From contig JAYZEG010000063.1 of assembly GCA_036337435.1 (NCBI GenBank), positions 37,991-101,990 on the forward strand: a stretch of 64,000 nt of DNA, written 5' to 3'. Below the pieces are notes generated by a model. It made no database searches and was not told the origin of the DNA. It worked only from the letters and a program-made list of their open reading frames with translations. The position numbers and the translations under genes are program-made. Numbering within the stretch: the stretch's first letter is position 1; each line of letters starts with the position of its first letter. Positions 2,279 to 64,000 of the stretch are shown piece after piece. This DNA is from Myxococcota bacterium (GTDB taxonomy: Bacteria > Myxococcota_A > Bradymonadia > UBA7976 > UBA1532).

Positions 2279-2853
2279 GGTGTCTTAGGCTTTGGCTGCT
2301 GTACGCCTTTTAGGGGAAAACTCGGATCAACGAAAACGGTCTTTACTTGGCGCAGATAAACACATGCATCCGGTCCCTTTTGTTTGATTGGTTTGGTCTG
2401 CGCGAGCAGTTCGACGCGGCCCACTTGCGTGAATGGTATGTCGATGTTTTCTACGTTAACTTGGCCCTTGGCTCGTTCAACCAAATAGCCGCCACGTTTT
2501 ATGACCTGTTGCAGATACCGCCTCTGGGACTTGGCTTTGCAAGACGGTGTCGTGACCACGCGTTTTTCGGTGTTGCTGCACAAGTCCTCTGTTTCGGTGG
2601 CATCGACGACCAACTTGAGACCTGGAAGGCAAACGACATCTGCCGTTTCCAAGCGGCACTGTACGTGCGGGCTCAGATTCCGCAGCACCGGTTGAGAGAT
2701 TCCCTGAATACCTCGGCAGTCTACAAGGTTTTCCTGAGTCTTTGTTTGAGCCGATGCCGAAACGGAAAACAGCAAGATAAGTAGGGACAACTGAGTCCAT
2801 TTATCAGTGGTTTTGCAGACGGAACGAGATGTGCCTTTTGGTCGACTGCTCAC
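2275..2853 (-). CDS. Secreted hypothetical protein with spaced cysteines
   Basis: Signal peptide LSLLILLFSVSASA; stop overlaps the receptor start (ATGA); GTG start at 2853 chosen because it lies just after the upstream stop. Confidence 0.6.
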   Translation of the reverse strand: MSSRPKGTSRSVCKTTDKWTQLSLLILLFSVSASAQTKTQENLVDCRGIQGISQPVLRNLSPHVQCRLETADVVCLPGLKLVVDATETEDLCSNTEKRVVTTPSCKAKSQRRYLQQVIKRGGYLVERAKGQVNVENIDIPFTQVGRVELLAQTKPIKQKGPDACVYLRQVKTVFVDPSFPLKGVQQPKPKTP

Positions 2854-2857
2854 TGGA

Positions 2858-3769
2858 CTAGGGCCACCTATACGCTCTGAGAGTTTGAATCTCGTCAAAG
2901 GATGCTTCGAATCCCGTGGCGTCAACAAAACGCTGGTTGTCGATAACGACGGGATATTTGATATGATTCAATGAGCCTTTCGGCAATCTTGAGAAGCCGA
3001 AGCGCCCGAGTATCGCTGGAAACAACGGCTCGGGGACCGGGATCGAACGGCACCCCGCAATTCGGCACAGCAGGGCGAGCGGGACTGGCGGTGGACCCGA
3101 TACATTAAACACCCCCCTCAGTTTATTCTTCAAACTGGTGAAGATGGCCATCGCCGCATCTGCTTCATGCATGAAATGGAATAAAGGGTCAAAGCCCATG
3201 ACAGTCGGTACTTTCGGTCCGCGCAAGTAATTGGCTAAGGTGCCGCGCTTTGAAGGGCCGAGTGAATAGGCGAGTCGAAGCACGGCAGTCTCGACGCTTG
3301 GTCGTCGCCAAATTGAATTTCCTGCGTAGAGGTCAGCTGCGACTAAGTCTGCAAGGTTAGGGAAGGTGCTTCCAGCCATCAGCGGTTCGTCCTCATTGCG
3401 ATACAAGGGGGCGTCGGCCGCGGCACCATACACGGTATGTCGGCCGACAAAGATGGCGTGCTTGACCCCATAATTCTCGCAATAGTCCCAAACGGCCCTG
3501 GTTCCGCCCAAATTGATTCGGTAGCGTTCCTCGCTGCCTGCGCTGACATAGGTCACCGTAGCCATATGAATCAGGGCGTCAGGTTTGTAGGTCCGAAAAA
3601 CGTCTTCGGCCGGCCTTTTACGCATATCGACTCGGAACATTTGAACTCGAGCTGGGCAGTCTGGCCATGGGCGTCGGTCAAGCCCCAGAACGTCATGACC
3701 GTCGTTGACGAGCAGGTGGACAACTTGACGTGCCAATGCCCCACTCGCGCCAGTAACAACCACCTTCAT
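2858..3769 (-). CDS. NAD-dependent epimerase/dehydratase family (extended SDR), atypical active site
   Basis: [11 protein letters not shown]ossmann motif, IHMA, INLGGT; no YxxxK at the expected position; ATGA overlap with the upstream acyltransferase. Confidence 0.85.
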
Positions 3770-4575
3770 GTTTTTTCCCCAAGGGCCTGCCGCCCGTCCA
3801 CGATCAGTTCTGCTATGCGGCTCCTAACCTCTTTGACATAGCCTTCAATAACGAGATCTGATTCGGTGCCATCTCCCTCGAAAAGGATCGGTTCGCCGTA
3901 GTGTATTCGACAGCGAATCGGCAGCGGAACTGGAAGAAGGTAGGGTGGAACCGGCCAGTAGGGGACTCCGACCAGCTTGGCGAGTGACTTGGCATGGAAC
4001 ATCGCGGGAAATGCTTCTTCACCCCCGACGTAGGCGAACGGGACGATGGGGGTTTGCGTTTTCAGGGCGATTCTCATGAAACCCGTTCCGAATCGAACGA
4101 GCTTGTATTTGTCTTTGTAGAGTTTTCCGATGCCGCGCACACCTTCAGGAAACGCCATCAAGAGCCGTTCGTCCTTGAGCATACGGATCGCGTGCTCAGG
4201 AAGCCCCGTAAACTGACCAATGCGGGAGAACCAAGAGGACAGAAAAGGAATCGTTTGCGCGAACTTCTCTACCATCCCGTGAATGTATCTCGGTGGATTT
4301 AAATCAAAGAACAACGATGCCATAACCATTCCACCGTCTGCGGGAAGCGAGCCCGAGTGATTACCAATCAACATGGCTCGACCTGTCGGCGGGATATTCT
4401 CGAGACCAACAGGGGTCACCTTAAAATACTGTTTGTAGAAGAAACCCAGCATCGAATAGAAAACGCCCAGGTGTTCCCGCGATATGCCAACAGGATCGTG
4501 GCCGTATGCATTAAAGTCCAAGTCGAGGCTGTCGAGACGCGTTTGGACCTCTTCATGAATTAAATGAGTGAGCAT
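3766..4575 (-). CDS. Lysophospholipid/glycerol acyltransferase (PlsC-like)
   Basis: NHSGSLPAD (HxxxxD), FPEG, PIVP motifs. Confidence 0.9.
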
Positions 4576-4708
4576 GGGTTTTACCCTGATCCGATCGACA
4601 ACAGAGTGAGTTTACGTTGGCCTTGTTATTATCGACCAGCTTCATAGAGTTGTCCATTGAACTCTTACGGAGTAAACAAGACCCGTTCGACAGAGGAGAG
4701 CAGACCCC

Positions 4709-5485
4709 ATGAATCACGTTACAGTTGTGACCGGAGCATCATCAGGGATCGGTGCCGAACTCGCCAAGCAGTTGGCGTCGGCTGGGCATTCGGTTGCGTT
4801 ATTGGCGAGACGTAAAGATGAGTTAATGGCCCTTGCAGATGACATCATTCGAGCCGGTGGCCGCGCCGAGGTCTTTCCTGTCGATGTTGCAGACCGAGGT
4901 GCTGTGGTGGAGGCGATGAAAGAAATCGAATCACGGCTGGGACCGATCACAACTCTGGTCGCCAATGCTGGAATTGGTGACTCAACTCCAGCGAACGGAT
5001 TTAGGTCGGACAAAGTCGAGCGAATTATTAGAGTCAACTTGCTGGGCGTGGTCTATTGCATTGAATATGTCCTGCCCGGCATGCTTGAACGCGATCAGGG
5101 TCATATTGTTGGCATTGGCAGTTTAGCTGGCTATCGAGGCCTACCGGGCTCGGCTGGTTATTGTGCATCGAAAGCCGGATTGGCGGCGCTGCTCGAATCC
5201 CTTCGTATTGAACTTCAGAGTACAGAGGTTTCGGTCACCACCATTTGTCCGGGCTTTGTGAAGACGCCCCTAACCGCTCGAAATCATCATCCCATGCCCT
5301 TCATTCTGGAGCTGGACGATGCGACGCGCCGCATTGTCCGGGCCATGGCAAAGAAGCGCACAGAGTATGCCTTCCCGTGGCCACTTGCCTTCACGGTGAA
5401 ACTCGCCCGATTCATTCCGAACAGGCTCTATGACCGTATCCTCAAGAATCAGTCGGCTCAGAAGGAACCGTCGAGCACAAACTAA
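4709..5485 (+). CDS. Short-chain dehydrogenase/reductase
   Basis: TGASSGIG, ANAG, YCASK, PGFVKT; GAGGAG RBS. Confidence 0.92.
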   Translation: MNHVTVVTGASSGIGAELAKQLASAGHSVALLARRKDELMALADDIIRAGGRAEVFPVDVADRGAVVEAMKEIESRLGPITTLVANAGIGDSTPANGFRSDKVERIIRVNLLGVVYCIEYVLPGMLERDQGHIVGIGSLAGYRGLPGSAGYCASKAGLAALLESLRIELQSTEVSVTTICPGFVKTPLTARNHHPMPFILELDDATRRIVRAMAKKRTEYAFPWPLAFTVKLARFIPNRLYDRILKNQSAQKEPSSTN

Positions 5486-5490
5486 TGTGT

Positions 5491-6141
5491 CTAGTCGAGT
5501 AGCCAATCATGTTTTAGACTGCCGTTCCGTCTAAATCGCGCCGGTCCGGTGCGTGTCACGGCCTGTCTGCGCCTGAGCCACGCTTTGAAGGGCCGGGGCG
5601 CCACGGGTTGCCCCAAGATTTGGCTGTAGAGTTGCCGAGCTTGTTTTGTTCGGAACGTCGCTGGAAGCAGTGCGAGAGGATAGGTGTCGACGTTGATTCG
5701 CTGTCTGAGGTGGACTATGGCGGCATCTAACATATCAGCCAAATTGCGTTTCAATTGCGGCCTTGTTGAGAGCGGATACCAGTCCGATCGACCACGCTGA
5801 TCATTGAGTTTGACGGCGTGATTTGGCTTTAGGAGACCCAGAAAGGTGAGGCTGACAGACCAGTCTTCGTCGTCTTGAACAGACGGCCATAAAGAACTCA
5901 ATTCGGCGAGTTCAATGATGTCCTCGTCAAGGTCGAATCCCAGGAGGTGTTTCAGAGTCTGACGTGGTGTCTCACCATTGAGTATTACGGCGGACGGTAG
6001 GGTCAAAAGACCATTTTCATCATCCTTGGGGGACTCGATGAAAAGACCTTCGAGTTGGCCTTTCGTATACCGTAGGATGACGACGTGTACGGTCAGTGTT
6101 GGCTTTGAGTCGGATGTTTTCATATGTGCCAGAGTACTCAT
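5491..6141 (-). CDS. NrtR-like Nudix + winged-helix regulator with degenerate Nudix box
   Basis: PTLTVHVVIL...LTLPSAVILNGETPRQ Nudix-like N-terminus; C-terminal LLPATF...LYSQILG...FKAWL...TGPARFRR resembling the NrtR wHTH. Confidence 0.65.
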   Translation of the reverse strand: MSTLAHMKTSDSKPTLTVHVVILRYTKGQLEGLFIESPKDDENGLLTLPSAVILNGETPRQTLKHLLGFDLDEDIIELAELSSLWPSVQDDEDWSVSLTFLGLLKPNHAVKLNDQRGRSDWYPLSTRPQLKRNLADMLDAAIVHLRQRINVDTYPLALLPATFRTKQARQLYSQILGQPVAPRPFKAWLRRRQAVTRTGPARFRRNGSLKHDWLLD

Positions 6142-6213
6142 CCTCGGTCCGTCAGGAAAGGGGGCTCGCTTTTCGAGTGTACGCCAACGTCAAAATTTCC
6201 GATAATCAACGGT

Positions 6214-7560
6214 ATGCCCGCTGGTTTTTTTTACTCATTTTTGCTGTTCCTCTGTTTTGCCTGTGCATCTGGCGAACCCCGCCCATACATGGAGATTATA
6301 ACGACGCCAACCGATCGTGATGTCACTGCCCAATCAGAGGTTGGGGTTGGTGATGGGGGGGGACTCAACGATTTTGGTGGTTTTATTGAGCTAGAGCCAA
6401 ATCGAACCGTCTTTTTGATTGTTGACCAACAACCGTACGAGACGGGTTTTAGAGGGACTTTGATTCCGCCACATCGGCCGGCTTATGAGCATCTGGATGA
6501 GCTTGATAAGATCGAGCCAACGGTCCTTGTTGCTGTTTGGGATGGGCCGGGGTCCATACGTGATGACCAGCTAAAGAGCTTGTCAGCTAGGCGTTGGCCC
6601 ATTGTTCCTTTTTACCGGCCTAGCGCAAATGGACTGCCCTTGAATCGGGATGAGGTTCTGGCGAATCTGCAGGTCCTTCTGGAGTGGCTCATCAATAGCC
6701 CTTCTCCGTACCGCGTCGATGGTAAGATCCTGGTCGCCCTGGACTTAAGCGACGCTCTCCAGCCTTATTCAGACGACCTTTTAAGCTTTGTCGAGACGGC
6801 GGCTGAATTCAATCTACTGGTTAAAGTGTCTAACCCCGATGCAGCTCCGTTCCAGGCTCTCGGTTATTGGACGACCTGTCATGACGCCATTGATGTGCTT
6901 GATGACCGACAAATACCGTGTGTCGGGCCCAAGCAAGGTCGCGGTTCATTGGATCCTGAATCGGACTTTGCAAATCGCCTCGTTGAAGCCAGATTGCTCA
7001 GTGACGCTGGCCATCGACAACTCCTGGTTGATGGGCTTGGCCGCTGGGATAACGATGGACAGCTCGATTCGGTCGTTGGTTCGGACACGGTAAGGCCGGA
7101 AGGACTGACTGGCGGTCAGCTTATCAAAGCGTATGGAGAAGGCCGAGTTCAGCAAGTGAGACGTATGTTAGCCCGCTCTCAAGACGGCAACTTTATTTCG
7201 TTTTTTGACCAAGACGTTGACTTAGTTGGACGTGGTGACTTGAGAGTGGACACTCGAGCTGGCGCGCTCCAATTTAAGCTCAGTCCAAGTTCTGAATACG
7301 TAAAAGTGCTGTTGAATTCCACTCCCTTTGTTTTATTTCCCACGACTCAATGTGTAATTCAACGAATCAGTGAGGGCATGAGTTTGCAATTTCGTTTTGC
7401 GACCGGCGAGATCCAGACATGGCACCATCGCTCGGATCAGGCTTACACGGCCTTTTTGGTTGGACGGGTCATGCGACGAGTCGAAGACGTTATCATCGAG
7501 TATCGGGGTGCCACCATCGAGGCAGTGCCCTCGATTGATGGGTTGATTTGTGGGCAGTGA
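6214..7560 (+). CDS. Lipoprotein with a degenerate GH99-like domain
   Basis: Lipobox-like LCFAC; segments FRGTLIPP, VAVWDGPGS, YRVDGKILV, GRWDNDGQLD...YGEGRV recall GH99-like proteins (recalled resemblance, not searched); ATG 6214 preferred over 6124. Confidence 0.5.
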   Translation: MPAGFFYSFLLFLCFACASGEPRPYMEIITTPTDRDVTAQSEVGVGDGGGLNDFGGFIELEPNRTVFLIVDQQPYETGFRGTLIPPHRPAYEHLDELDKIEPTVLVAVWDGPGSIRDDQLKSLSARRWPIVPFYRPSANGLPLNRDEVLANLQVLLEWLINSPSPYRVDGKILVALDLSDALQPYSDDLLSFVETAAEFNLLVKVSNPDAAPFQALGYWTTCHDAIDVLDDRQIPCVGPKQGRGSLDPESDFANRLVEARLLSDAGHRQLLVDGLGRWDNDGQLDSVVGSDTVRPEGLTGGQLIKAYGEGRVQQVRRMLARSQDGNFISFFDQDVDLVGRGDLRVDTRAGALQFKLSPSSEYVKVLLNSTPFVLFPTTQCVIQRISEGMSLQFRFATGEIQTWHHRSDQAYTAFLVGRVMRRVEDVIIEYRGATIEAVPSIDGLICGQ

Positions 7561-7662
7561 TGTTTTCTTTCCCAGCGCGAGTTGAATCGAGACAGGTTTC
7601 ACTCTCGCGCTGTTGGCATTCTCGGTATAGTCTAAGGAGTCCGAACGAGCTGGCATGATCGA

Positions 7663-10600
7663 TTGAGCGACAAAAAAGAACCATACGATACGAGCGAGCG
7701 CATCGAGCAGCTGCGCGGTGAGCTGAAGAGGGATCCTGGCTCCCACGCGTACGTCGAACTGGCGCAACTGTATTTAGAACAGGGTGACTTGGTCTCAGCC
7801 CGCGGGGTGGTTCTTGACGGACTGTCTCTCGACTCCAGACATGTTGCCGGCCAAGTGATGCTTGCTAAACTGGACCTCACTCTTGGTTTTTATGACCGGG
7901 CAGAGCCAACGCTCAGACGAATTCTTCAGGCCCGGCCTCAGAACGTGGAGGCGACCTTATTGCTGGTCGACCTCTTGAGCATCACTGAACGTCAAGAAGA
8001 AGCCGTCGCTTTGTTGCGGACTAAAATCAGGCTGTTTTCAGATTCAGCTTTTGTCTCGAAATTACAGGAAATGACAGGGTCCGGTCAGGTGAGCATGTCC
8101 TACCCAGTCACGGGTGGTGCCACTCAGATGTCGCGCTACGTAAAGTCTTTGACGAAACGCTCTGAGTTGAATTCTCGGACGGGTGAAGAACCCCCAACCG
8201 AAGAGGTCGCAGCACCCGTTACGTTGGTCAGTCAGCTGAAAAAAACGGATACCGATGACGCCCAAACCGAGAAAACCGAGCCACCGCGTCAGGGGGCAGC
8301 GGTTGTTGGACGCGAGACGGCGCCCAACCCGCAGCCACTTGGACCCGATGTAGCGTACCCAACTTTGGGCAACAACTCAGGCAGACCAACGCTCAGTGTT
8401 CCCGATACAACCAATCAAATTGGCCCAGGCCCGGATGAGATTGTTCTGCGTCCGATGGTGGGTGCACCAACCACGCCCATAGATCCCACCCAAGCTGCGG
8501 GGCATGATGGGCGGTCACAGGAGGCCCAGGAGCAGACCAATCAGGGGTCTCATGGGATTCCGGAGCCACCGACGCTGTCAGATTTTGGCGATTTGAATGC
8601 CATCTCTGATGATCGGGTCGTATCCAAGAGGGCTGATCGGTCTACAGGGCGTGGCGATTATCCCCAAGAAACTGATCGTCTCGAAATTGACGAATCTATC
8701 GGCGGTGAAGAAACCACCAATAATGTTCTTTCGTCCGGCGGAAAACCGAGGCGAGTCGGAGAGGGCGAACGGTCCGATTTTATTGATACCGAACCGCGTC
8801 ATCCCCTTGACCAAAAAACCAAAAATTATGTCCGAGAACCAGGTCATATGCCGCTTAGCCCCGCCCTGACAGTCGAGGCTGCCCGCGCCAATGATAAACA
8901 CCTGCCGGCGCGTGTTCTTGAAGAGCCGAAGACCGTAGAGCGGACATCAGCAGCCGAAGCTCCAGAACCAACCCAGCGTCGGGCAGGCCAAGATGCTTTT
9001 TTTGCGATCCGAATCATTTTACTCTGTTTCATTGGTTTGGCAGCACTCACATCGATCTTTTCTGTGAGCCAATATCGGACGAGCCTGAGCAATGAATTGG
9101 ATGCATATGACCAAATCAAGGCGAGTATTCAGGATGGAAACTATGCCAGTCGTAAACGGGCTTTTGATTATTTCGTAAATCAACATCAATTGCCCTTTCT
9201 GGCGGCGTCGGCTCGGAAGGTGGTTAATTGGTTTGGTCCCAGTGCCTTTGACCGACTCAAGGCTGACCAAGACGCGTTTCGTGACCGTCTGACCCAGGAG
9301 CTGATCTACATCTACGGGGAAGCTGGGCCTGTGGCAGACACGTCGAAAAAGACCTCGTTTCCATCTATGGCAGGTCGCAATGACCATGTCATCGCGCGCA
9401 TTTTGGCTGCGTTGAAGGCGGGTCGCATAGATGAAGCTGAAAATCGACTCAACGAGCTGAAAGACATCCCCGAGCTTGCTGATGATAATGCGTGGATCGC
9501 AGCGCTCGTATTCGTCGAGAAGGGGCAAATTCAAAGCGCAATTGATCGACTGCGGGTGTCAATTCGAGCAAATCCGAATCATCCCCATGCCCTGCCGACT
9601 TTGGTCAAACTCACCAGCTCTCTACGGGATCCAATCCCAACGCTGGAGACGTATCGAAGATTGCTCAATGATCAAAAACCAAACCACATTTCGTCTCAGA
9701 TTGATTTTCAGGCGTTTCGAATTAGGTTGGGTAAAAATACAAGTTTAGCAACGCAGCGCCTGCGCGAACTCCTGACCCGTGATGGTGAACTTTCAAGTTT
9801 GCAAGAAGCGACTATACATCAGGCGTTGGGCGAACACTTTGTGACCAGCAATCAGCCAGACGCGGCTAAACGAGCCTTTGAAAAGGCCATTGAACTCCAG
9901 AAACAGCGCTTTGAATTCGCGAGCCCTTTGGTCGCCTTACTGCTCGCGGAGTATGCGCTGGATGAAGCGGGACGTTTGCTTGAACACTATAAGGATGACG
10001 TCACACCCGACGTTTCTGCTCAGCTTGCCGAGCTACAATATTTACGCGGTTTTCCGGAAAACGCGATCACGATTTTGGGGGCTGGCCCCTTCGCTGATGT
10101 CTCAACTCGTCTGCTCAAAGCGAAAGCGCACTTGGCCATTGCCCGTCGACAACCGAGGGCAGCGAAAAGTCATCTAAATGCCGCAGAACAACTCTACCTG
10201 GACCTGATGAACACAGAGCGGCAGACGGCAAATCGCGCTCGCATCGGATTGGCATTGGTCCGGGTATTAAGTCGGCAAGAGGACAGCAAGGCACTGCGTC
10301 AGTTGGGGCAGCTGCGCGATGGTGTTGGGAACGCGTGGGACCGAGAAGCAAGGGCCTTCGTACTTTTAGCCTATGGCGAAGGGTTAATGACCCGTCAATT
10401 GTATCAGCGAGCGAAGACACAAATCCAAAGTGCCCAGCAATTGATTCCTGAACGGTACGAAGCGCACTGGGTTCTGTGCCGGCTCTATGACCTCATGTTG
10501 AGGTCCAAAGATGCGATTTCGCACTGTCGTTCAGCGCTGAAGAACCCGCATTTCGAGCCAGCCCGAGTAAAAATGTCTCAGATCGCGATGAAATATGGTG

Positions 10601-32629: not shown

Positions 32630-34642
32630 TTGAACCCCAGTTCATCAACGTCAAAGCGCATCAAACGGGTTCCGAAAGCAGCACCTAAGGCGGGGCGTAA
32701 GCGCAGGCAGCGTGAGCCGGTACCCGTCACCGTGGATTTACTGCGATCGACGCCGTTTTTTGCTCACCTGCCGCAACCTTACCTCGATGCGTTGGTGTCC
32801 CGTGCAGAGCATGTTGAATTGGCGCGTGGAGAACATGCCTTTAATGGCCGACCGCTTGGTGGGCAGGACATGACTCTCTTTCTCGTTCTCTTTGGAGACC
32901 TCAGTGTTCACAGAACCCAGAATAAAGGGCCGGAGGAAACGGCGAATTATCTGACCGTCGGCGACTTCTTTGTTGAAAGGTTGATCGTCGATGACGACAC
33001 AAAATCAATTAGGCTGACGGCCATGTGTCCAGTGCGCGTTTTGAAGTTCAGCTATGCTGATTTCAATGTGCTGCTTCGCGATCACGACGAGTTGAGAAAC
33101 AGTTTTTCTGAGCGAATCCGCACGGTTGTCGACCGCCAAAAGTCTCGGTTCGATGATAAGTTCCAAAAAGAGATAGCCCGATTTCTGGTACAGGAAAGAC
33201 TGACTTTTGCTGGGCGGGTCAAGCTCAAACGGATGGATTTATGCATCGAGTGCGACGGCTGCTATTCAGCCTGTAAAGACCGCCATGGGACCGATCGTCT
33301 TGGTCCTAGTGAAGTTAAATACGGTCTCACTGAGATTCCCCAGAACTGTCACAATTGCGTAGTGCCTGAATGCATGGACAAATGTAAATTCGGGCACATC
33401 GGGCGGCATGCCATCACAGGTGAGATCGTCATCGATGACAACTGCATTGGCTGCACAATGTGCAGTAAAGGGTGCAGCTTTGGGTCCATTCGGATGCACC
33501 CGATCGATGAATTGGACATGGAAAAATATTTTCCGAACCGCTCCCCTGACGCAAAGGGCAAGGCGATTGCTCAGAAATGCGATAATTGTACTGGCTATGA
33601 AGATAAAGCCTGTATTTCGGCATGTCCTACGGGTGCATTATTTCAGCTAGATGGCGTGGAGCTGTTTGAGAATTGGCGACAATTTAGCCCGCAATCGCAA
33701 AACGATGGTGCGACGATTGAGAGTCCCAATGAGTTCCCCTATCGATGGCGCCAATTTTGGGTCGCGCTGACCGTTTCTGTAACCCTATTTCTGGCTTGGG
33801 AATGCTTCGGCCGTTTGTATTGGCCAAAGGTCACATTTGCAGAGTTATTCTTTCAACTCGGCTGGTCTGCATCGGGTGTTGATCCAGTGGTCCCTTTTCG
33901 TGCCGGAGATTTCTTCAGTCACGCGCTCGGTTACATCGGTGGCGGATTGATGCTGGGGACTCAAGTATACCGATTAAGGGGTCGATTCAGCACGACACCT
34001 GTCTTGATGGAGGCCCATATTTGGATGGGTGTGATCGGTTTCATCATGGCGTTTTTTCACACCGCTTTTGTGTTTAGTGATCCTATCGCTGTCGCCACTT
34101 TCCTGACCATGTTTTTGGCTGTCGTCACTGGGACAATTGGCCGCTACGTTGTCTACATCGTCCCGAGAAATAAGCATGGCCATGAGCTTCTCTTGTATGA
34201 AGTTAACGATCGAATCAGTGAGGTCAGTAGACAAATAGAGGGCGTTTTCTCGGATCCAAGCGTTGGCCACACTGCAATCGTCAGGTTAAAAGACATCCTT
34301 GGACAAGAGAAAAATGAAACGGCGTTGGCGTCTTCAGAGTCCCGCGGCTGGCGGTCCTTCATCTCGCTCCTTGTCGACCTGATTCGACGCGATGCGTTGA
34401 CGAAAAAACGTGTTTCAGACCTTGCAAGTGAGTTAAGCCAAGGGTTTGAAGATGCAAACCAGACTACGCTCCTCGAGACGCTCATGACGGAAAAGAGTCG
34501 GTTGGAGCGTGCGATTGTTCAGCATGCATTTTTGTCCAAGGTCTTAAAACGGTATCGAATTGTCCATGTCACCAGCAGCAATATTATGTTTGGAGCACTG
34601 ATTCTCCATATTGTTTTCGCGTTGATGTATCAGGTCAATTGA
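32630..34642 (+). CDS. Fusion: cNMP-binding-like domain + four-cluster NrfC/DmsB-type ferredoxin + putative di-heme cytochrome b membrane domain
   Basis: LRSTPFFAHL...LFLVLFGDLSV...GDFF (CNB fold); CIECDGCYSAC, CHNCVVPECMDKC, CIGCTMCSKGC, CDNC...CISACP; TM helices with HIWMGVIGFIMAFFH and HVTSSNIMFGALILH. Confidence 0.85.
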   Translation: MNPSSSTSKRIKRVPKAAPKAGRKRRQREPVPVTVDLLRSTPFFAHLPQPYLDALVSRAEHVELARGEHAFNGRPLGGQDMTLFLVLFGDLSVHRTQNKGPEETANYLTVGDFFVERLIVDDDTKSIRLTAMCPVRVLKFSYADFNVLLRDHDELRNSFSERIRTVVDRQKSRFDDKFQKEIARFLVQERLTFAGRVKLKRMDLCIECDGCYSACKDRHGTDRLGPSEVKYGLTEIPQNCHNCVVPECMDKCKFGHIGRHAITGEIVIDDNCIGCTMCSKGCSFGSIRMHPIDELDMEKYFPNRSPDAKGKAIAQKCDNCTGYEDKACISACPTGALFQLDGVELFENWRQFSPQSQNDGATIESPNEFPYRWRQFWVALTVSVTLFLAWECFGRLYWPKVTFAELFFQLGWSASGVDPVVPFRAGDFFSHALGYIGGGLMLGTQVYRLRGRFSTTPVLMEAHIWMGVIGFIMAFFHTAFVFSDPIAVATFLTMFLAVVTGTIGRYVVYIVPRNKHGHELLLYEVNDRISEVSRQIEGVFSDPSVGHTAIVRLKDILGQEKNETALASSESRGWRSFISLLVDLIRRDALTKKRVSDLASELSQGFEDANQTTLLETLMTEKSRLERAIVQHAFLSKVLKRYRIVHVTSSNIMFGALILHIVFALMYQVN

Positions 34643-34792: not shown

Positions 34793-37117
34793 ATGGGGCG
34801 CCCCTCGGCACAGACTAGGTCAGTCACTCGTCGGTTTGTTCTGCCAACCATCGTTTTTTGGCCGCTGTTGATTCTTTGTTTCAACTCTCAGGTTTTCGCT
34901 GTCGGGCCCTTATCGACCCCACATGCTCGCTATGACAACAATAACGATTGTACTAAGTGCCACGACATTTTTGGGGGCATGCCCAATCGAAACTGCCTTA
35001 ATTGTCACAAACGCATTGGCCAGCGGATCAGTGCTCGTAAAGGGTACCATGGGCGCAATGCAGTTGGCGCCAAGTGTCATGATTGTCATCGTGAACATCG
35101 CGGGCGTGGCTATGGGATAACCCAACTCAATAGGCGAACTTTTGACCACAATCTCACGGGTTGGTCGCTCACGGGTGGTCATACACGTGTTCCATGCCGG
35201 GAATGTCACAGCGCAAAGCGACCAGGGACGAACCGGGACAGTTATCTTGGGGCACCAACGAACTGTAATGGCTGTCATGGGAGCTATCATGGCCAAGGCC
35301 AAAAAGCGGAGTTGAATCGCTGCCAGGATTGCCACAACACCACAAGCTGGGCGTCTCTCAACGATAAATTGAGATTCAATCATAACACACAAACAAATTT
35401 TCCTTTGACTGGCCTTCATCGACAAGCATCCTGTGATAAATGTCATCTCGGCAAGCGTAACTTCGGACCAATTGAGGTTTCAGGCTGTGTAAGTTGTCAC
35501 AAAAACCCCCATCCGGTCGGTGTATTTGGATCACCGCGCAAGTGTGAAGAATGTCATGTGACCAGCGGGTTTAAGAAGACCAATGTCTTCGACCATTCTA
35601 CGGCTGGTTGGACTCTTCGTGGTAAACATGCAGTGAATGCATGTACCGATTGCCACTCCTGGGAGAAATGGCGACCACCAACCAACGATTGCCGCGGGTG
35701 TCATGTCGACGTCCACAAGGGGCAATTTGGTCGACAGCGATGCGACAGCTGTCACAAACAGACCGGGTTTACGGGACGGCATTTGAAGTTCAATCATAAC
35801 ACCATGAGTCGGTTCCCACTGAAGGGGCGGCATACGCGCGTCGATTGTGTCAGTTGCCACCCCGGTGGCACCTACAAGCCATTGCCCATGGAATGCGCGG
35901 ATTGTCATCAAGATGACAATCCGCATGGAGATACTTTCGGTGAGACACCATGCAGTAATTGTCACTCGCCCGTCGATTGGATGAAGACCCGTTTTGATCA
36001 CAGTGTGACTGGATTCGCACTTGAAGAGCGTCATGCCGAGCAGCCCTGTTATCGTTGCCACCCGAACGGAACTGAAATTGAAGATGACACGGAAAGGCGC
36101 TGTTCGTTTTGCCACACGGACGTCCATCAAGGCCAATTCGAAGCCCCGCTGGACCAATTAAATCGGTCCCTGGCGTCCCAGTCCCAGCAGGCATCTGATG
36201 GCTGTGAAAAATGTCATTCGGGTTTTCGGTCCTGGAAAATTCCATTCTTTGACCACAATATCAGTCAATTTGCGCTCACTGGGCAGCACCAGACGGTGCC
36301 TTGTTCAGGGTGTCACACGGAGGGACATTTCAAGCCCATTGATACAGCCTGTGCGAATTGTCATTACAATTTCCACGAGGGGCAGTTCAGTCAACCGTGT
36401 GACCAATGTCACACAACAAAAGCCTGGGCACCGTTGGAGGGATTCGACCACAACACCAGAACGGACTATCGCTTGGATGGCCGTCATGAAGAGGTCGATT
36501 GCGGCAAATGTCATATCGACAACATCTATACAGACACGCCGCAGGCATGTGGAGATTGTCACGTCGATGTCCATAAGGGAAAGCTTGGTCCGGGTTGTGA
36601 CCGCTGCCATGGCGTTGAGGATTGGTCAATCAACACGATGCAAGACCATGATTTCGGCGCATTCCGACTGGGTGGCGTTCACGACCTATTGCCCTGCGAG
36701 GAGTGTCACGGTCCAGATCGAAAGGAGACGCAAGCTGGACGAGGTCCCGAATGCGTAAACTGTCATCGAGATCCCCATTTCGGGAGCTTTGGACCTCAAT
36801 GTTTCGAATGTCACAATCAACAAGCTTTCTTGCCAAGTACCTTTCTTCACGCTGAAACGGGCTTCCGACTGTCTGGAGCACATCGTTTTGTTGAATGCCG
36901 GGATTGTCATCCTGGGCGTGTTTTCGGCGGGTTGCCCAATGATTGTTTCTTCTGTCATACACAAGATTTCAACGCGACCGCCGGCAGTAAGCTCTGCGAT
37001 CACACAGCGTGCATTCCAGGCGGGTTAGACACCTGTCACAATTGTCATCGGTCAACAAGTTTCATCCCAGCGCGGCCCGGCTCCGGGTGCGGGGTTTGCG
37101 AGGTCAATGGCCGATGA
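34793..37117 (+). CDS. Exported multiheme cytochrome c with 30 CxxCH motifs
   Basis: Signal peptide; 30 CxxCH counted by hand, arranged as triheme repeats FDHxxTxFxLxGxH-CxxCH-CxxCH-xxH-CxxCH. Confidence 0.95.
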   Translation: MGRPSAQTRSVTRRFVLPTIVFWPLLILCFNSQVFAVGPLSTPHARYDNNNDCTKCHDIFGGMPNRNCLNCHKRIGQRISARKGYHGRNAVGAKCHDCHREHRGRGYGITQLNRRTFDHNLTGWSLTGGHTRVPCRECHSAKRPGTNRDSYLGAPTNCNGCHGSYHGQGQKAELNRCQDCHNTTSWASLNDKLRFNHNTQTNFPLTGLHRQASCDKCHLGKRNFGPIEVSGCVSCHKNPHPVGVFGSPRKCEECHVTSGFKKTNVFDHSTAGWTLRGKHAVNACTDCHSWEKWRPPTNDCRGCHVDVHKGQFGRQRCDSCHKQTGFTGRHLKFNHNTMSRFPLKGRHTRVDCVSCHPGGTYKPLPMECADCHQDDNPHGDTFGETPCSNCHSPVDWMKTRFDHSVTGFALEERHAEQPCYRCHPNGTEIEDDTERRCSFCHTDVHQGQFEAPLDQLNRSLASQSQQASDGCEKCHSGFRSWKIPFFDHNISQFALTGQHQTVPCSGCHTEGHFKPIDTACANCHYNFHEGQFSQPCDQCHTTKAWAPLEGFDHNTRTDYRLDGRHEEVDCGKCHIDNIYTDTPQACGDCHVDVHKGKLGPGCDRCHGVEDWSINTMQDHDFGAFRLGGVHDLLPCEECHGPDRKETQAGRGPECVNCHRDPHFGSFGPQCFECHNQQAFLPSTFLHAETGFRLSGAHRFVECRDCHPGRVFGGLPNDCFFCHTQDFNATAGSKLCDHTACIPGGLDTCHNCHRSTSFIPARPGSGCGVCEVNGR

Positions 37118-56879: not shown

Positions 56880-57042
56880 TTTCAGAATACGTTTTCCCAC
56901 GGGCTTTGCTAACGAGGGCACCTAAGTCCTTCTAGCCTATTCCGGTTTCAGTATGCAATCTTTGGACGCCGGTAGCGGCCAATTACCAACAGCTTGGCTA
57001 ATGCTGTTCGCGCTCATCGATGTTCGTGTTATTGATTTATGT

Positions 57043-58119
57043 ATGGATCCCAAACACACACTATTGCGAATCATGACTGCTCTGATGCTGTTGTGCTTTC
57101 TGAGCGCATGCGGCGGTCAGCCCACGGTCAGGGAAAATATGGGTCAGTTCAATTGGAATACTGGCTTTGGCGGCGGTTTTGTTGGGTATTGCCAGTGTGG
57201 ACAGACCCTCTGGCTTTTCTCCGTTGACCGGGCGGAACGCTTCGACTTGTCTTCGAAGAACGGCCGATTGTTAAAAGAGCAGGTAAGTCATTGGTTTCTT
57301 GGAGCCAATCATGCCAATTTTGAACGCTTAGAGTGCCAGTCGAATGCCATTCGATTACGACCAGCTCAAGCCCCATCCAAGCCTATTTACGGTCAAGAAT
57401 CGCCGCAGACCGGTTGGGTCGGTATCAAAAGATTCAAAGAGCACTCCATTCGTTTTCCCCTAGGTTCGGGTGGCACTCTCGATGTGTCGCGACAAGGTTG
57501 GGTCATCAAAACGAATCAAGTTGTGCGTGATTGGCGACTCAAAGCCAGCGGTCTCATCGCTGCAACTGTCGATGGTGGTCGCGTGTGGGCCATCAGCGAT
57601 AGAGCCCTTTGGCGAGTTGACGTAAATCGACGTAGAATGGTGTCCATCGCGCTGCCCAGTCAGCTGATTCAAGACGGTCTGTCGGGCTTGTTTATGGACG
57701 GTCGTGTCGTATGGCTACGAGATCGGAGTAACTTGGCTCAGCCCCTGGACATACGAGGACATTACGCGTATCCACTGGCTGCCCCTGGTAAAGTTCATCT
57801 TGCGTCAGACTCTGTCAAAATGCCCTTTGGCTTCGGAGAATTAAAATGGCTGGGGCCGTCGAGCCAACTTGCCTTTCATGTGGGTCAGACGGTGACAACA
57901 CTGAATGAGTCCGTGGACAGTCTACTCGTCTTGTCAGCTGCCCACGTCATGGTGTCTAGCGGAGACCATCTTGAATTGTGGCACCTGGGCGGAGTTCAGC
58001 CGATGCGTCAAGGGCGCTTCAAAATGCCAGGTAAGACCGTGGCCTTATTTCAGTTGGAGAAGCAGATTCTCGCTCTTGGAGAGGGATATGGCATGATGAT
58101 CGGGGCTTTTAAAAATTAG
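57043..58119 (+). CDS. Beta-rich lipoprotein of unknown function
   Basis: Lipobox FLSAC; short beta-strand repeats (propeller-like); start uncertain. Confidence 0.6.
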   Translation: MDPKHTLLRIMTALMLLCFLSACGGQPTVRENMGQFNWNTGFGGGFVGYCQCGQTLWLFSVDRAERFDLSSKNGRLLKEQVSHWFLGANHANFERLECQSNAIRLRPAQAPSKPIYGQESPQTGWVGIKRFKEHSIRFPLGSGGTLDVSRQGWVIKTNQVVRDWRLKASGLIAATVDGGRVWAISDRALWRVDVNRRRMVSIALPSQLIQDGLSGLFMDGRVVWLRDRSNLAQPLDIRGHYAYPLAAPGKVHLASDSVKMPFGFGELKWLGPSSQLAFHVGQTVTTLNESVDSLLVLSAAHVMVSSGDHLELWHLGGVQPMRQGRFKMPGKTVALFQLEKQILALGEGYGMMIGAFKN

Positions 58120-60734: not shown

Positions 60735-62603
60735 TCATCCACATGGTGGAATAAAGCAAACCTTAGGCTCGAAAGAACTGGGTGGAGGGCCGTCATCACA
60801 ACTTTCGGCAATGGCGAGGTCTGGAGCCCACTGCCATTCGTTCAACTGAATTTCTCCAATGTGCTCGGCGAGTCCACATTGATTGTATGCACGGACTTCG
60901 GCGCGTTTCACTGTTCGGGTTGTTTGGCGATAGAACATACCGACACGATTTCGTGGAATGGTGCCACCAAAATCGCGTACGGTGCGGAAACTTTCAGACG
61001 TAGACCAAGTGGACTCTTCTGACTCGCTGATCCCCTCGCTCACCAAATTCGAATCGCTTGCGCTGCCGGAGAAATTCCATGTTCGGCCATTTTCGCGCGC
61101 GGTCCTGTCCTCCAATTCTCGAGTCCGGGCTCTCGATAAGGCGAACGAGCCATCTATAGTCTGAGACTGACCATCGGTGACCGTCGAGCCAAATCCAGTG
61201 CTCTCATCGGTGGACCCATTCATACTGTGGCCACGGCTTGTTTCGTTGGTTCGACTCACGCCATTATCCCAAGCGGTCGCCCCGCCCGCTCGAACGCCAA
61301 CCGAGGTCGATGCCCGACCGGTCGCCTTGGCAAAACCTGGAACGCTGCCTTCGGCAGACATACCCACCGTGTTGCGCACACTGCCATCGCCGTATAGCCG
61401 GTTTACTCGGTTCTGATATTCCGTGTTACTCTCGCCTTCTCTACGCGACCAGCCCCAGGTTTCGCCGTCGCTGGTGTTCACGCTGACTCGGTTTGCCTCA
61501 CTGGCGTTGTAGGAAATACCGTACGAGTCTTGGGTTTTTTCAGTCTCTGACTCCGAGCCTCCCAGACTTTGCGAAAAACTTTCACCGGTGGTGATGCCTT
61601 CTTGGAATGATTGCGTGTTGGTCATGCCGTTGCTCACCGACCAATTGCCGCTGATGGATACGCTTACGCTTCGCTGGCGACTTTCTGTTTTGCTTTCTCG
61701 ATATCGAACTCGCGTACCAATACTGCCTGGAATGCAACCAGACACCGGTACGGGCGCATAACGCTCAGCAATTTCAGCTCGTTTAGACAGCATCAGCACT
61801 TCGATGGGTCGATGCACGGTCATCGGAAGAGCTGTTTCGATGCGTCTTCCCTCAGCGTCTTCGGCGATGACGCGAATCCCCGTTGCATAAAATTGTTCCT
61901 GGTCGTCGATTTGATTGAAAATGATCGGCTCGTTGTCGCCGATAGCATCCCGGTCAACCGGGGCATCGAATTCGTTGATATACTCGACCGTGCCAGGCGC
62001 CCCGTTGATTCGATCCAACTTGTAGATGAAACGAACCGGCTTGTGTCCAACGGCCCGCACTTGCAGTCGATAGGCAAGGCCTGGCAGCGCACGGAGAGCA
62101 GGGTTTCCACATGCCGCGTCGATGGGCTGAAATTCTTCGATGATCACCGATGGTGCAATGGTCAGGGCGACGTTGCGCGTCGTATGTGTCTCCTCACTCT
62201 GGCCCGGTTGGGTTTCCACAGCCAAGGTGACTTGTCCCTCGAAGCGTCCTGGTCTGTCATTCGCGCTAAACGGATTGCCGAATGGTCCAAATCGGTTCAG
62301 TCTCAAAACCTGGTAATCATTGCCGTCGATTTCAACATCACCGTCTAGAATGACCGCTTGATTGACCAACACGTTTTCAACTTCGCCCAGGTCATTGTAG
62401 AAGAGCCCTTCGAAGGTGAGCCGATAGCCGAAACCGTCCGTATTTACGTTGCGTGTATAGACTTCGACCGTTTGACCGATGACCAGTTCATGGCTCGAAA
62501 AGCCGATTTCAGTTGATGCAGGGTCGGAGATTCCATCATCTGAGCAGCCGACTATGAGCCCTGTCGCCAAAGCCAGTGTCACTATACGTCGTATCGTTCG
62601 CAT
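60735..62603 (-). CDS. Lipoprotein with giant Ser/Thr-rich hairpin in an aerolysin-like frame (paralogue B)
   Basis: GGAG RBS, lipobox LIVGC; 252-aa S/T/G-rich tract (60954-61709) centred on EGSVPGFAK; Cys-containing flanks. Confidence 0.8.
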   Translation of the reverse strand: MRTIRRIVTLALATGLIVGCSDDGISDPASTEIGFSSHELVIGQTVEVYTRNVNTDGFGYRLTFEGLFYNDLGEVENVLVNQAVILDGDVEIDGNDYQVLRLNRFGPFGNPFSANDRPGRFEGQVTLAVETQPGQSEETHTTRNVALTIAPSVIIEEFQPIDAACGNPALRALPGLAYRLQVRAVGHKPVRFIYKLDRINGAPGTVEYINEFDAPVDRDAIGDNEPIIFNQIDDQEQFYATGIRVIAEDAEGRRIETALPMTVHRPIEVLMLSKRAEIAERYAPVPVSGCIPGSIGTRVRYRESKTESRQRSVSVSISGNWSVSNGMTNTQSFQEGITTGESFSQSLGGSESETEKTQDSYGISYNASEANRVSVNTSDGETWGWSRREGESNTEYQNRVNRLYGDGSVRNTVGMSAEGSVPGFAKATGRASTSVGVRAGGATAWDNGVSRTNETSRGHSMNGSTDESTGFGSTVTDGQSQTIDGSFALSRARTRELEDRTARENGRTWNFSGSASDSNLVSEGISESEESTWSTSESFRTVRDFGGTIPRNRVGMFYRQTTRTVKRAEVRAYNQCGLAEHIGEIQLNEWQWAPDLAIAESCDDGPPPSSFEPKVCFIPPCG

Positions 62604-62612
62604 TAGACTCTC

Positions 62613-64000
62613 CTAGCCATCACAGGGGGGAATGTAGCAGCGTGCTGCCGGCAGCTTAGACTCGGGTGGCTCGATGCTACAGTCGTCTCCGATAGCCAAG
62701 TCTGGTGCCCACTCCCACTCGTTGAATTGAAGCTCGCCCGCATGAGTGGCTAGCCCGCAAAGGTCGTACGTTCGGACTTCTGCACGCCGGACGAATCGAC
62801 TCGTTTGCCGATAGAACATGCCGACCTTGGTCCGAGGAATCCGACCGCTGTAACTCTGGCTGGTCGTCAAACTTTCCGATGTCTGCCAAGTACTTGATTC
62901 CGCTTCGCTCATCCCTTCACTCACAGTCTCACTTTGCGAGAGGCCCTCGCCAAAGCTCCAAGTCCTCGATTCGCTTCTCGCCGTGGTGTCATTGAAGCGT
63001 CGTTGTCTTGAATTGCTGAGTGCATATGACCCACTCATGCTCTGACTTTCACGCTCGGAGGTCGTTGTACCGTAACTGCGTGTCTCATCGCGGCTACCGC
63101 CCATGCTGTAGCCGGATTCCCGCGACACGCGGGCCCGTGTCCCATTGGTTCCAGCGGTGCTGGTGCCTGCCGTCACCCCGACGGTTGTTTCTGTGCTGCC
63201 TGTCACCTTCGCAAAACCTGGAACTGACCCTTCTGCAGATGCACCGACCGTCCCTGACCAACTGCCCTCACCGAAGACCATGTTCATTCGGCTTTCATAG
63301 TCTTCGTTGCTCTCACCTTCATTGACATTCCAGCCCCAGGTTTCACCATCACGTGTGCTGAAATTGACGTCGTTTGCCGTATTTCGGGAAAAACTGACGC
63401 CCATAGTCTCTTGACTGGTCGACCCTTCCCATTCTGAGCCACCTAAGCTCTGGCTTACGCTTTCGCCCACGCTCACACCGTCTCGGAGCATTTCAGAGAC
63501 GCTGCGTCCAGAGCTGCGTTTCCAGTCGGAACTGACGGTCATCCGCACACTCCGTTGCTTTGTTTCCGTGCGGCTCTCTTCGTAGCTCACCTCCGCGCCG
63601 ATCGTTCCGGGAATGCAACCGGACACAGGCTCAGGCTCGTAGATTTGTGCCAATTCTTGCTCGCCGTTAAAACGCACCTCGATCGGGCGATGGACCGTCA
63701 GTGGAATGGCCGTCTCGACAGACCGTCCATTGTCATCCATGGCGATGATGCGGACATCGGTCACGTAGAACTGAACATCCTCTTTGACCGGGTTGAAGAT
63801 GATGGCTTCTTCGCGACCCAGCACATCCGTTGCGACGGGGTTGCCCGTTCCGAATTCGTGAACGATCCGAGTCAGGCCTTCGTTTGCGCCAATTTGACTC
63901 AATTCGTAAATAAACTTCGTGGGCTGAATACCTGTCGCTCTGACCTGAAGTTGATAAGCCAGGCCCGCCAAAGCTCTCGGGGCTGGAGAGGCACATTCGG
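62613..64000 (-). CDS. Tandem paralogue A of the giant-hairpin protein (5' part outside the window)
   Basis: Frame stays open to the window edge (ECASPAPRALAG matches ACGNPALRALPG of B); shares VHRPIEV, PVSGCIPG, DGETWGW, AEGSVPGFAK, VGMFYRQT, QxNEWxWAPDLAI, CxIPPC. Confidence 0.88.
   Translation of the reverse strand, partial: ECASPAPRALAGLAYQLQVRATGIQPTKFIYELSQIGANEGLTRIVHEFGTGNPVATDVLGREEAIIFNPVKEDVQFYVTDVRIIAMDDNGRSVETAIPLTVHRPIEVRFNGEQELAQIYEPEPVSGCIPGTIGAEVSYEESRTETKQRSVRMTVSSDWKRSSGRSVSEMLRDGVSVGESVSQSLGGSEWEGSTSQETMGVSFSRNTANDVNFSTRDGETWGWNVNEGESNEDYESRMNMVFGEGSWSGTVGASAEGSVPGFAKVTGSTETTVGVTAGTSTAGTNGTRARVSRESGYSMGGSRDETRSYGTTTSERESQSMSGSYALSNSRQRRFNDTTARSESRTWSFGEGLSQSETVSEGMSEAESSTWQTSESLTTSQSYSGRIPRTKVGMFYRQTSRFVRRAEVRTYDLCGLATHAGELQFNEWEWAPDLAIGDDCSIEPPESKLPAARCYIPPCDG

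Follow-up and report, generated by a model that had tools for sequence, protein, structure and literature searches.

Paired predicted lipoproteins with a long, Pro-centred hairpin tract in Bradymonadia: a candidate new family of beta-barrel pore-formers

In this report we describe two adjacent genes, A and B, at the end of a 64,000-nucleotide stretch of DNA (hereafter the window, numbered from its first base) from a Myxococcota bacterium of the class Bradymonadia (GenBank assembly GCA_036337435.1, contig JAYZEG010000063.1, positions 37,991 to 101,990 of the forward strand). Each of their products carries a tract of 252 residues rich in Ser, Thr, Gly and Glu, and its interpretation as one long antiparallel beta-hairpin centred on a Pro residue is supported by conserved lengths, mirrored insertions and deletions (indels), covariation, charge pairing and the alternation of residues. 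On balance, we lean towards considering A and B lipid-anchored exported proteins of a so far undescribed family of beta-barrel pore-formers.

The symmetric hairpin tract

Gene A (P0001; 60735..62603, minus strand) is a complete open reading frame (ORF) of 622 residues with a lipobox, while 461 residues are visible of gene B (P0002; 62613..64000, minus strand, ORF 62613..63998+), whose N-terminus lies beyond the window end. Both are paralogues with 52% identity (238 of 459 residues, E 1e-170). An initial annotation, made from the sequence, had reported the two Ser/Thr/Gly/Glu-rich tracts, with a single Pro at position 124, and had proposed a giant symmetric hairpin with alternating arms. The translations confirm the tracts and the central Pro, and the hairpin has gained support from several independent features, as described below. 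In A, the tract comprises residues 299-550 (60954..61709, minus strand), which would form the two arms of the hairpin; in B, it comprises the visible residues 137-388 (62835..63590, minus strand), with length and register as in A. CIPG on one side and IP..VGMFYRQT on the other bound both tracts. The sole Pro within the tract of A is P422 (codon 61338-61340), located in GSVPGFAK at position 124 of 252, and its counterpart in B, P260 (codon 63219-63221), is nearly invariant in the alignment of B-type proteins. Residues 306-541 of A consist mainly of Ser (45 of 236), Gly (29), Thr (27), Glu (22), Arg (19) and Asn (16), with one Pro. The tract is no DNA tandem repeat, so that an origin as a tandem-repeat artefact could be excluded.

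The length of the tract is conserved to the residue in a large part of the family. In the 197 family proteins containing both motifs, the span between the Cys of CIPG and the aromatic residue preceding YRQ is exactly 267 residues in 100 cases, despite an identity of only about 40-50%; the remaining proteins belong to classes of 71-91 (46 proteins), 160-188 (12), 212-260 (16), 266 (1), 270-271 (15) and more than 273 residues (7). Where lengths differ, the changes are mirrored about the Pro, as read from a MAFFT alignment of representatives of the length classes. Two residues gained at position -76 in the 271 class are matched by two at +72; P0128 lacks 16 residues on either side (-28 to -13 and +19 to +34) and P0131 lacks 22 (-29 to -8 and +10 to +31); in the 160 class, one arm is shorter by 54-56 residues and the other by 52-54. 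Almost all distinct indel events (32 of 34, manual count; binomial p 3.5e-8) comprise an even number of residues, as strands with two different faces require. The two arms are accordingly of nearly equal length in all classes (132/134, 134/136, 129/130, 118/120, 113/114, 112/114, 109/110, 83/84 and 79/80; r = 0.999), and also in the short forms discussed below the tip lies in the middle of the tract (manual count).

Covariation within the tract was calculated as mutual information (MI) with average product correction (APC) for 103 distinct tracts of the 267 class, corresponding to an effective number of sequences (Neff) of 58. Of all antidiagonals, i+j=264, which is exactly twice the index of the Pro, has the highest mean APC-corrected MI; within the range of 200-339, 266 and 268 rank next. 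The mean observed for 264 was reached by none of 20000 random pairings (z about 6.6), and the signal is positive in seven of eight blocks along the hairpin. The surplus of opposite-charge over like-charge pairs likewise peaks at 264, then at 266, among 130 registers. A two-residue phase runs through the whole tract: in the autocorrelation of the position profile (lags 1-119), even lags have a mean of +0.11 and odd lags of -0.12, with no dominant repeat lag (14, 22 and 12 all about 0.21). Since this phase is never broken and no repeat length dominates, no solenoid unit is apparent. The alternation of residues in the arms turned out to be far stronger than the initial annotation had suggested: counted from the Pro, Ser or Thr occupies 28 of 49 and 25 of 49 even positions in the two arms of A and 22 of 49 and 30 of 49 in those of B, compared to only 3, 8, 6 and 8 of 49 odd positions (Fisher p 5e-8 to 6e-4). 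The strongest single MI pairs are local ones in the second arm, connecting tract index 213 with 239 and 243 (antidiagonals 442-462). These indices correspond to residues 503, 529 and 533 of A (window about 61000-61100); the pairs may be subfamily markers or contacts of the fold in a soluble state.

The faces of the two arms differ between the tip and the stems. When positions are paired according to register 264, their hydropathy, averaged over the family, alternates strictly over the first 20 or so pairs from the Pro (d=1 to 19-22), with apolar residues (V, A, M, G, L) at odd and polar or charged residues (E/K, G/R, D/R) at even positions; the peak at period 2.0 reaches 11.4 times the mean power. 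This amphipathic tip, a candidate transmembrane segment, covers about 20 residues per arm around P422 in A (residues 400-445; 61269..61406, minus strand) and lies at about 63150-63287 (minus strand) in B. Along the stems, about 100 residues per arm, both faces are polar: the even face, continuous with the polar face of the tip, is composed of 53-57% Ser/Thr and 15% Gly, and the odd face, continuous with the apolar face of the tip, contains 45-51% charged or amide residues. Such an arrangement matches a water-filled barrel that has a lumen of Ser/Thr, carries charges on its outside and spans a membrane at one end. Amphipathicity alone prefers 268 in most long forms, with the same faces, and cannot separate 264, 266 and 268; register 264 was chosen because covariation and charges point there. 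On a family average, the mean hydrophobicity shows a periodicity of about 12.3 residues in both stem arms, and apolar pairs occur on the presumed outer face at about d=37/39, 49, 61, 75, 85-89, 105-109 and 123-127 from the tip. These pairs could form rings around a tube, contacts in a compact pre-pore or docking sites.

Architecture, relatives and structure models

Both A and B are predicted lipoproteins, with a signal peptide ending in a lipobox Cys. In A, residues 1-20 (62544..62603, minus strand) form the signal peptide with the lipobox LIVGC, already recognised in the initial annotation, and all 53 aligned relatives share its C20. The missing N-terminus of B can be deduced from a syntenic locus in a Myxococcales metagenome-assembled genome (MAG), L003, in which the A copy is 93% identical to that of the window and a full-length B orthologue of 631 residues (L003:8092-9987; 95% identity over the visible part of B) starts with a signal peptide with the lipobox FIGC. 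A strict lipobox pattern was matched by 154 of 195 family proteins that look full-length, and those of the remaining proteins that were displayed also have a Cys after the signal peptide. The AGGAG ribosome-binding site of A (62610..62614, minus strand, read from the sequence) lies 6 nt ahead of its ATG and overlaps the TAG stop codon of B (62613-62615), and we therefore consider A and B to form one operon.

Downstream of the predicted lipidation site, residues 21-265 of A (61809..62543, minus strand) correspond to all-beta, Ig-like N-terminal domains, as judged from an AlphaFold2 (AF2) model of a short-form homologue aligned to A by hhalign. The first of these domains is IPT/TIG-like, with weak matches (E 0.027 and E 0.041); sequence and profile searches against the PDB were empty except for a weak IPT/TIG match to this domain. 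Residues 266-298 (61710..61808, minus strand) form the strands entering the hairpin according to the alignment and AF2, including the invariant Cys of SGCIPG (C290). Beyond the tract, residues 551-622 (60738..60953, minus strand) contain GMFYRQT, two strands of about 20 residues and a Cys-rich C-terminal tail (alignment; AF2 predicted local distance difference test, pLDDT, 83-96), in which C576, C602, C616 and C621 are invariant in the family alignment.

The relation of the tract to smaller hairpins becomes evident from short forms of about 470-515 residues, which have the lipobox, the Ig-like N-terminal part, CIPGG, FYRQT and the C-terminal Cys pattern in common with the long forms. At the site of the tract, these proteins contain a classic amphipathic hairpin of about 45 residues between runs rich in Ser, Thr, Glu and Arg, for example DIGFNFNAGLALNWGLPSNPFALGLNFNVGFGVDV. 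Over their full length, the alignments of long and short forms match each other in hhalign (probability 100%, E 6e-83), and the hairpin is the site at which the tract is inserted. Because these short-hairpin relatives are homologous over their full length, the tract is, by sequence comparison, an expanded insertion hairpin. The amphipathic hairpin flanked by Ser/Thr-rich strands, which the initial annotation had borrowed from aerolysin-type toxins, thus is recovered in the alternation of the tip, in the Ser/Thr face of both arms and in the short forms.

AF2 predicted the short form as an all-beta protein (pLDDT 89.4, predicted template modelling score 0.80), in which short helices and loops make up the hairpin segment, with two strands of about 20 residues behind it (419-438 and 444-464), the counterparts of the two C-terminal strands of A. 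Foldseek searches of the PDB with this whole model were dominated by tandem Ig/FN3-like adhesins at a template modelling (TM) score of about 0.2, with AgI/II C123 (E 1.9e-7) and RbmA as best matches and no pore toxin among the best 50. For residues 261-622 of A, the overall pLDDT was 51, but the flanks reached 83-96, the strands into the hairpin (model residues 11-40) having 88-94. The low-confidence strands within the tract are mirrored, pairing indices 7-33 with 231-259 and 85-99 with 167-181. Foldseek found nothing at E <= 0.001 for this model; the non-significant matches (E 0.37-2, probability <= 0.21, TM <= 0.13) are rich in chains of beta-pore-formers, namely alpha-hemolysin, lysenin and aerolysin pores, Dln1, lamprey immune protein and a Bombina aerolysin-like protein. 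This model-based enrichment should be regarded as a lead only.

A word-indexed protein search retrieved 135 relatives of A, and 306, 219 and 102 representative clusters were matched at E <= 1e-3, E <= 1e-10 and E <= 1e-30, respectively. All named relatives are annotated as 'hypothetical protein' and stem from MAGs of Myxococcales, Myxococcota, Bradymonadia, Proteobacteria/Pseudomonadota or an unclassified bacterium. Likewise, all 34 genome loci examined belong to MAGs (Myxococcota, Myxococcales, Nannocystaceae, Bradymonadia, 'Deltaproteobacteria' or unclassified). The assignment to a predatory group made in the initial annotation fits these relatives, inasmuch as cultured Bradymonadales are described as predators (PMC7460792). 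A search with the tract only among proteins of 1090-3110 residues gave no match, neither did a tblastn search for the family among plasmids, and in the ESM Atlas A matched only its own unnamed Myxococcota cluster (score 0.89), the short form giving no usable named match. PADLOC, Pfam and NCBIfam searches of A, B, the length variants and the neighbouring genes yielded nothing informative for the family. The only NCBIfam match, NF033849 ('ser_rich_anae_1'), covers the tract with 23.6 and 26.4 bits compared to a cut-off of 650 and probably is compositional. In full-text literature outside subscription journals, we found nothing linking aerolysin to Bradymonadales or Myxococcota and no description of a comparable long-stem pore-former of predatory bacteria. 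Since we found neither a name nor a domain model nor a paper for it, the family is considered new.

The paralogue pair proposed in the initial annotation proved to be conserved and anciently duplicated. Besides the window, 21 of the 34 loci contain a tandem pair, and several of the single-copy loci are located on short contigs or at contig ends. In a quick IQ-TREE phylogeny of 55 rows, B of the window falls into a clade with support 100, together with 15 upstream copies and three singles, and A into a clade with support 99, together with 16 downstream copies and one single. These separate clades indicate an old duplication, after which the order B-then-A was kept. Outside both clades are the distant single-copy loci (L025, L027-L034) as well as the pairs of L012, L013, L016, L018 and L021. 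Identity between A and B is lowest in the first Ig-like domain (35%) and highest in the strands flanking the hairpin (64-66%). Co-assembly of A with B is suggested by the conserved pair.

A putative long barrel and its alternatives

Members of the aerolysin family (aerolysin, ETX/MTX2, lysenin) resemble A and B in several respects: an amphipathic insertion hairpin lies between Ser/Thr-rich strands that become part of the barrel (in A and B, the putative barrel), Ser and Thr line the lumen or, in A and B, the presumed lumen face, and receptor-type domains are combined with a small elongated beta module. For lysenin, structural reports describe a 74-residue hairpin forming a 10 nm barrel, about 4 nm of which lies in the membrane (PMC4823867, PMC4865846), and Ser/Thr residues that point into the lumen over its full length (PMC4865846). 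In contrast, the hairpin of A and B has about 260 residues, implying 32-34 instead of 10 nm, and the proteins are predicted lipoproteins that occur as a conserved paralogue pair and have no profile or significant structural match to this family. The anthrax protective antigen (PA) and other B components of binary toxins also form a long extramembrane beta-barrel stem with a transmembrane tip; the PA stem measures 105 A by 27 A, is mostly extramembrane and only its tip is transmembrane (PMC6194281). The putative stem of A and B, however, would be about three times longer, PA14 and Binary_toxB domains are lacking according to Pfam, no conserved aromatic ring like the phi-clamp is seen, the presumed lumen face consisting of Ser, Thr and Gly, and no enzymatic partner is encoded near the two genes.

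Two-component pore-formers further include BinAB and the leukocidins. Particularly with regard to gene arrangement, the CDCL toxins of Bacteroidota should be mentioned, described as antibacterial pore-formers of two components encoded by adjacent genes, with a gene for an immunity lipoprotein immediately upstream (PMC11169675). Adjacent genes for related components and a lipoprotein gene just upstream are shared with our system. On the other hand, CDCLs belong to the CDC/MACPF (cholesterol-dependent cytolysin/membrane attack complex-perforin) superfamily with two short hairpins per subunit, and their components are unequal in size, whereas A and B are equal in architecture; moreover, the upstream lipoprotein is an immunity protein there, while nothing supports such a role for the Cys-rich lipoprotein encoded next to the present family. 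By likeness, A and B could thus be set beside the known families as a new one, putatively an extreme variant of beta-barrel pore-formers.

The hairpin with its register and two faces, the membrane-like tip, the lipobox, the homology to the short forms and the conserved pair are all visible in the sequences. Proceeding from these, we infer the following mechanism. A and B, each consisting of Ig-like domains, a small beta-sheet module and a hairpin of about 260 residues in two uninterrupted strands of about 125 residues, would be exported and lipidated, and the Ig-like head and the lipid anchor would stay in or on the outer membrane of the producer, about 30 nm from the tip. Oligomerisation, probably of A with B, would zip the hairpins side by side into a long tube with a Ser/Thr-lined lumen and a charged outer surface, whose amphipathic end of about 5 nm would insert into a membrane. 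Such a surface-exposed tube would most likely serve to attack another cell, or to deliver something into it, across a gap or a thick surface layer. Scaling from lysenin (0.27 nm per residue per arm) with about 120-125 residues per arm, the length of the barrel is estimated at 32-34 nm, about 5 nm of which would be the amphipathic tip. The 40 nm given in the initial annotation are the upper bound for a fully extended chain; crossing of a whole cell envelope, as also suggested there, is one possibility among several. Across the length classes, natural barrels would be roughly 11, 21, 30 and 33 nm long. Graded lengths and several members in one genome argue for different targets rather than a fixed periplasm; we therefore favour action on other cells, which agrees with the predatory habit of cultured Bradymonadales.

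In its most specific form, this idea would describe a hetero-oligomeric nanotube of A and B, about 30 nm long, bridging the outer membrane of the predator, in which the head is anchored, and a membrane of the prey, into which the tip inserts. Its length classes (arms of about 40, 80, 110 and 132 residues) would be tuned to different targets, and the Cys-rich lipoprotein might function as a sheath, an immunity factor or a chaperone. Across capsule or O-antigen, the tip could arrive at the outer membrane of the prey, or even at its inner membrane across the periplasm. We consider this elaborate version doubtful. If true, it would be a new kind of device for killing or delivery upon cell contact, and no known protein beta-barrel would come close to it in length.

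A number of observations weigh against the pore-former interpretation and call for caution. Pfam, with its profiles of Aerolysin, ETX_MTX2 and relatives, assigned no family to A or B at E <= 1, nor anything relevant to 17 length variants at E <= 0.1, and NCBIfam contains no pore-toxin family matching A or B. The aerolysin/ETX-MTX2 relationship invoked in the initial annotation therefore found no counterpart in sequence profiles, and in Foldseek chains of pore toxins appeared only at E >= 0.37; even these matches could result from the long-strand geometry of a poor model alone, AF2 having given a pLDDT <50 for the tract. The covariation rests on a Neff of 58 and on MI, a measure sensitive to phylogeny. 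Small residues (V, A, M, G) make up most of the apolar face of the tip, whose mean Kyte-Doolittle hydropathy in long forms (about 2.0) is close to that in short forms (2.3), and membrane insertion is accordingly plausible but not assured. With respect to a joint assembly, only four positions separate the A and B clades cleanly, and the cross-chain charge complementarity shows no difference between A-B, A-A and B-B pairing. Furthermore, one relative of 776 residues (P0186) has a tract of 435 residues with no amphipathic tip, its Pro/Asp/Thr-rich low-complexity centre being unlike a hairpin tip.

Among the other explanations, a role within the envelope of the producer itself is the main rival, even though we regard it as unlikely. 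The long barrel would then be no weapon, but would span the periplasm as a conduit or tether that serves secretion or the architecture of the envelope, with anchor and tip in different membranes of the cell (or with the tip entering the outer membrane from its periplasmic face). The envelope of Gram-negative bacteria is of the order of magnitude of 32-34 nm, so the estimated barrel length is comparable to it; all partner genes of the module encode exported proteins (the Cys-rich lipoprotein, the BNR/Sortilin-like and the 228-residue protein described below), the chromosomal surroundings consist of housekeeping and envelope genes (Wzy_C, transglycosylase, OmpA), and no immunity gene was identified. 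A hairpin length varying at least about threefold between relatives (arms of about 40, 80, 110 and 132 residues) is, however, hard to fit to one periplasmic width, several members are possible in one genome, and the short forms resemble ordinary secreted or anchored pore-formers. It seems decidedly unlikely that there is no pore and the tract forms a rigid beta-ribbon or oligomeric stalk, as adhesin or spacer distancing the Ig-like head from the membrane, with the apolar tip serving only oligomer contacts or anchoring. The Ig-like N-terminal domains, the tandem-Ig adhesins heading the Foldseek results of the short form and the missing match to any pore-toxin family would agree with a stalk. 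Two distinct polar faces over 100 residues nevertheless fit a lumen-bearing tube better than a free ribbon, short homologues possess a classic amphipathic insertion hairpin, and the lipid anchor at the Ig-domain end implies that the distal end is the tip of the hairpin and not the head.

Still less probable is a tract that, in its working state, folds into a compact beta domain, be it a solenoid or a set of local hairpins arranged as a meander or sandwich. The local character of the strongest single MI pairs (213 with 239 and 243), the apolar periodicity of about 12.3 residues in both arms and the fact that AF2 committed to no fold could be cited in its favour; the local contacts could equally describe a soluble pre-pore state. 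Turns would break the two-residue phase, which is never broken, no repeat lag dominates, and the global antidiagonal 264 beats all others; a solenoid, for which mirrored equal indels and equal arms are unexpected, was rejected on these grounds and on the unbroken phase. At the bottom of our ranking stands a disordered, possibly glycosylated Ser/Thr-rich linker, to which the composition of the tract, the faint NF033849 match and the low pLDDT would correspond. Given the exact length kept in 100 of 197 proteins, the even and mirrored indels, the position-specific alternation, covariation and charge pairing, and NF033849 scores far below the cut-off, such a linker is very unlikely and was rejected.

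If the hairpins of A and B indeed form a barrel, the result would be a natural tube roughly three times as long as the stems of lysenin and PA (10 and 10.5 nm). It would raise the questions of how such a structure folds, how it is kept soluble beforehand, what the tube reaches across and how a predatory lineage breaches or bridges envelopes. The graded hairpin lengths in homologous proteins would offer a ruler for relating stem length to function, and the family could become a source of long nanopores.

Neighbouring genes and other features of the window

Members of the family often are accompanied by genes for further exported proteins. In 21-22 of the 34 loci, a family gene adjoins the gene of a Cys-rich lipoprotein of about 720 residues with MopE-type metal-binding motifs and a weak PPC domain, and in 10 loci a BNR/Sortilin-like exported protein of about 690 residues and an exported protein of about 228 residues are present as well. 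The latter has a signal peptide and no Pfam match, and it shares its C-terminal domain with the BNR/Sortilin-like protein (E 8e-9). In L028 and L025, the four genes lie packed together on a single strand. In L003, the module is located at 2563-7767, in a region syntenic with the DNA just past window base 64000, and the genes for the Cys-rich, the BNR-like and the 228-residue protein of the present genome would thus lie beyond that base.

The locus of A and B itself is chromosomal, situated among housekeeping and envelope genes, its surroundings in the window comprising recA, gyrA, a gene for a transglycosylase like class A penicillin-binding proteins, OmpA and Wzy_C. Neither tRNA genes nor Rfam families at the gathering threshold were detected in window 1-64000. 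Opposite to the Ser/Gly/Thr-rich tract, an antisense ORF extends over 61611-62348 (plus strand), and long antisense ORFs cluster in this way in 29 of 35 sources; most likely, they are by-products of codon composition and not genes. Elsewhere in the window, a 388-residue ORF (56953-58119, plus strand) with a lipobox-like LSACGG and no Pfam match is 68% identical to its counterpart in L003, compared to 80-96% for the flanking genes, and looks like a fast-evolving exported protein. Finally, a multihaem cytochrome of 774 residues (c7/c3 type; 34793-37117, plus strand) is adjoined by a protein with cyclic nucleotide-binding (cNMP) and 4Fe-4S dicluster domains (32630-34642, plus strand).

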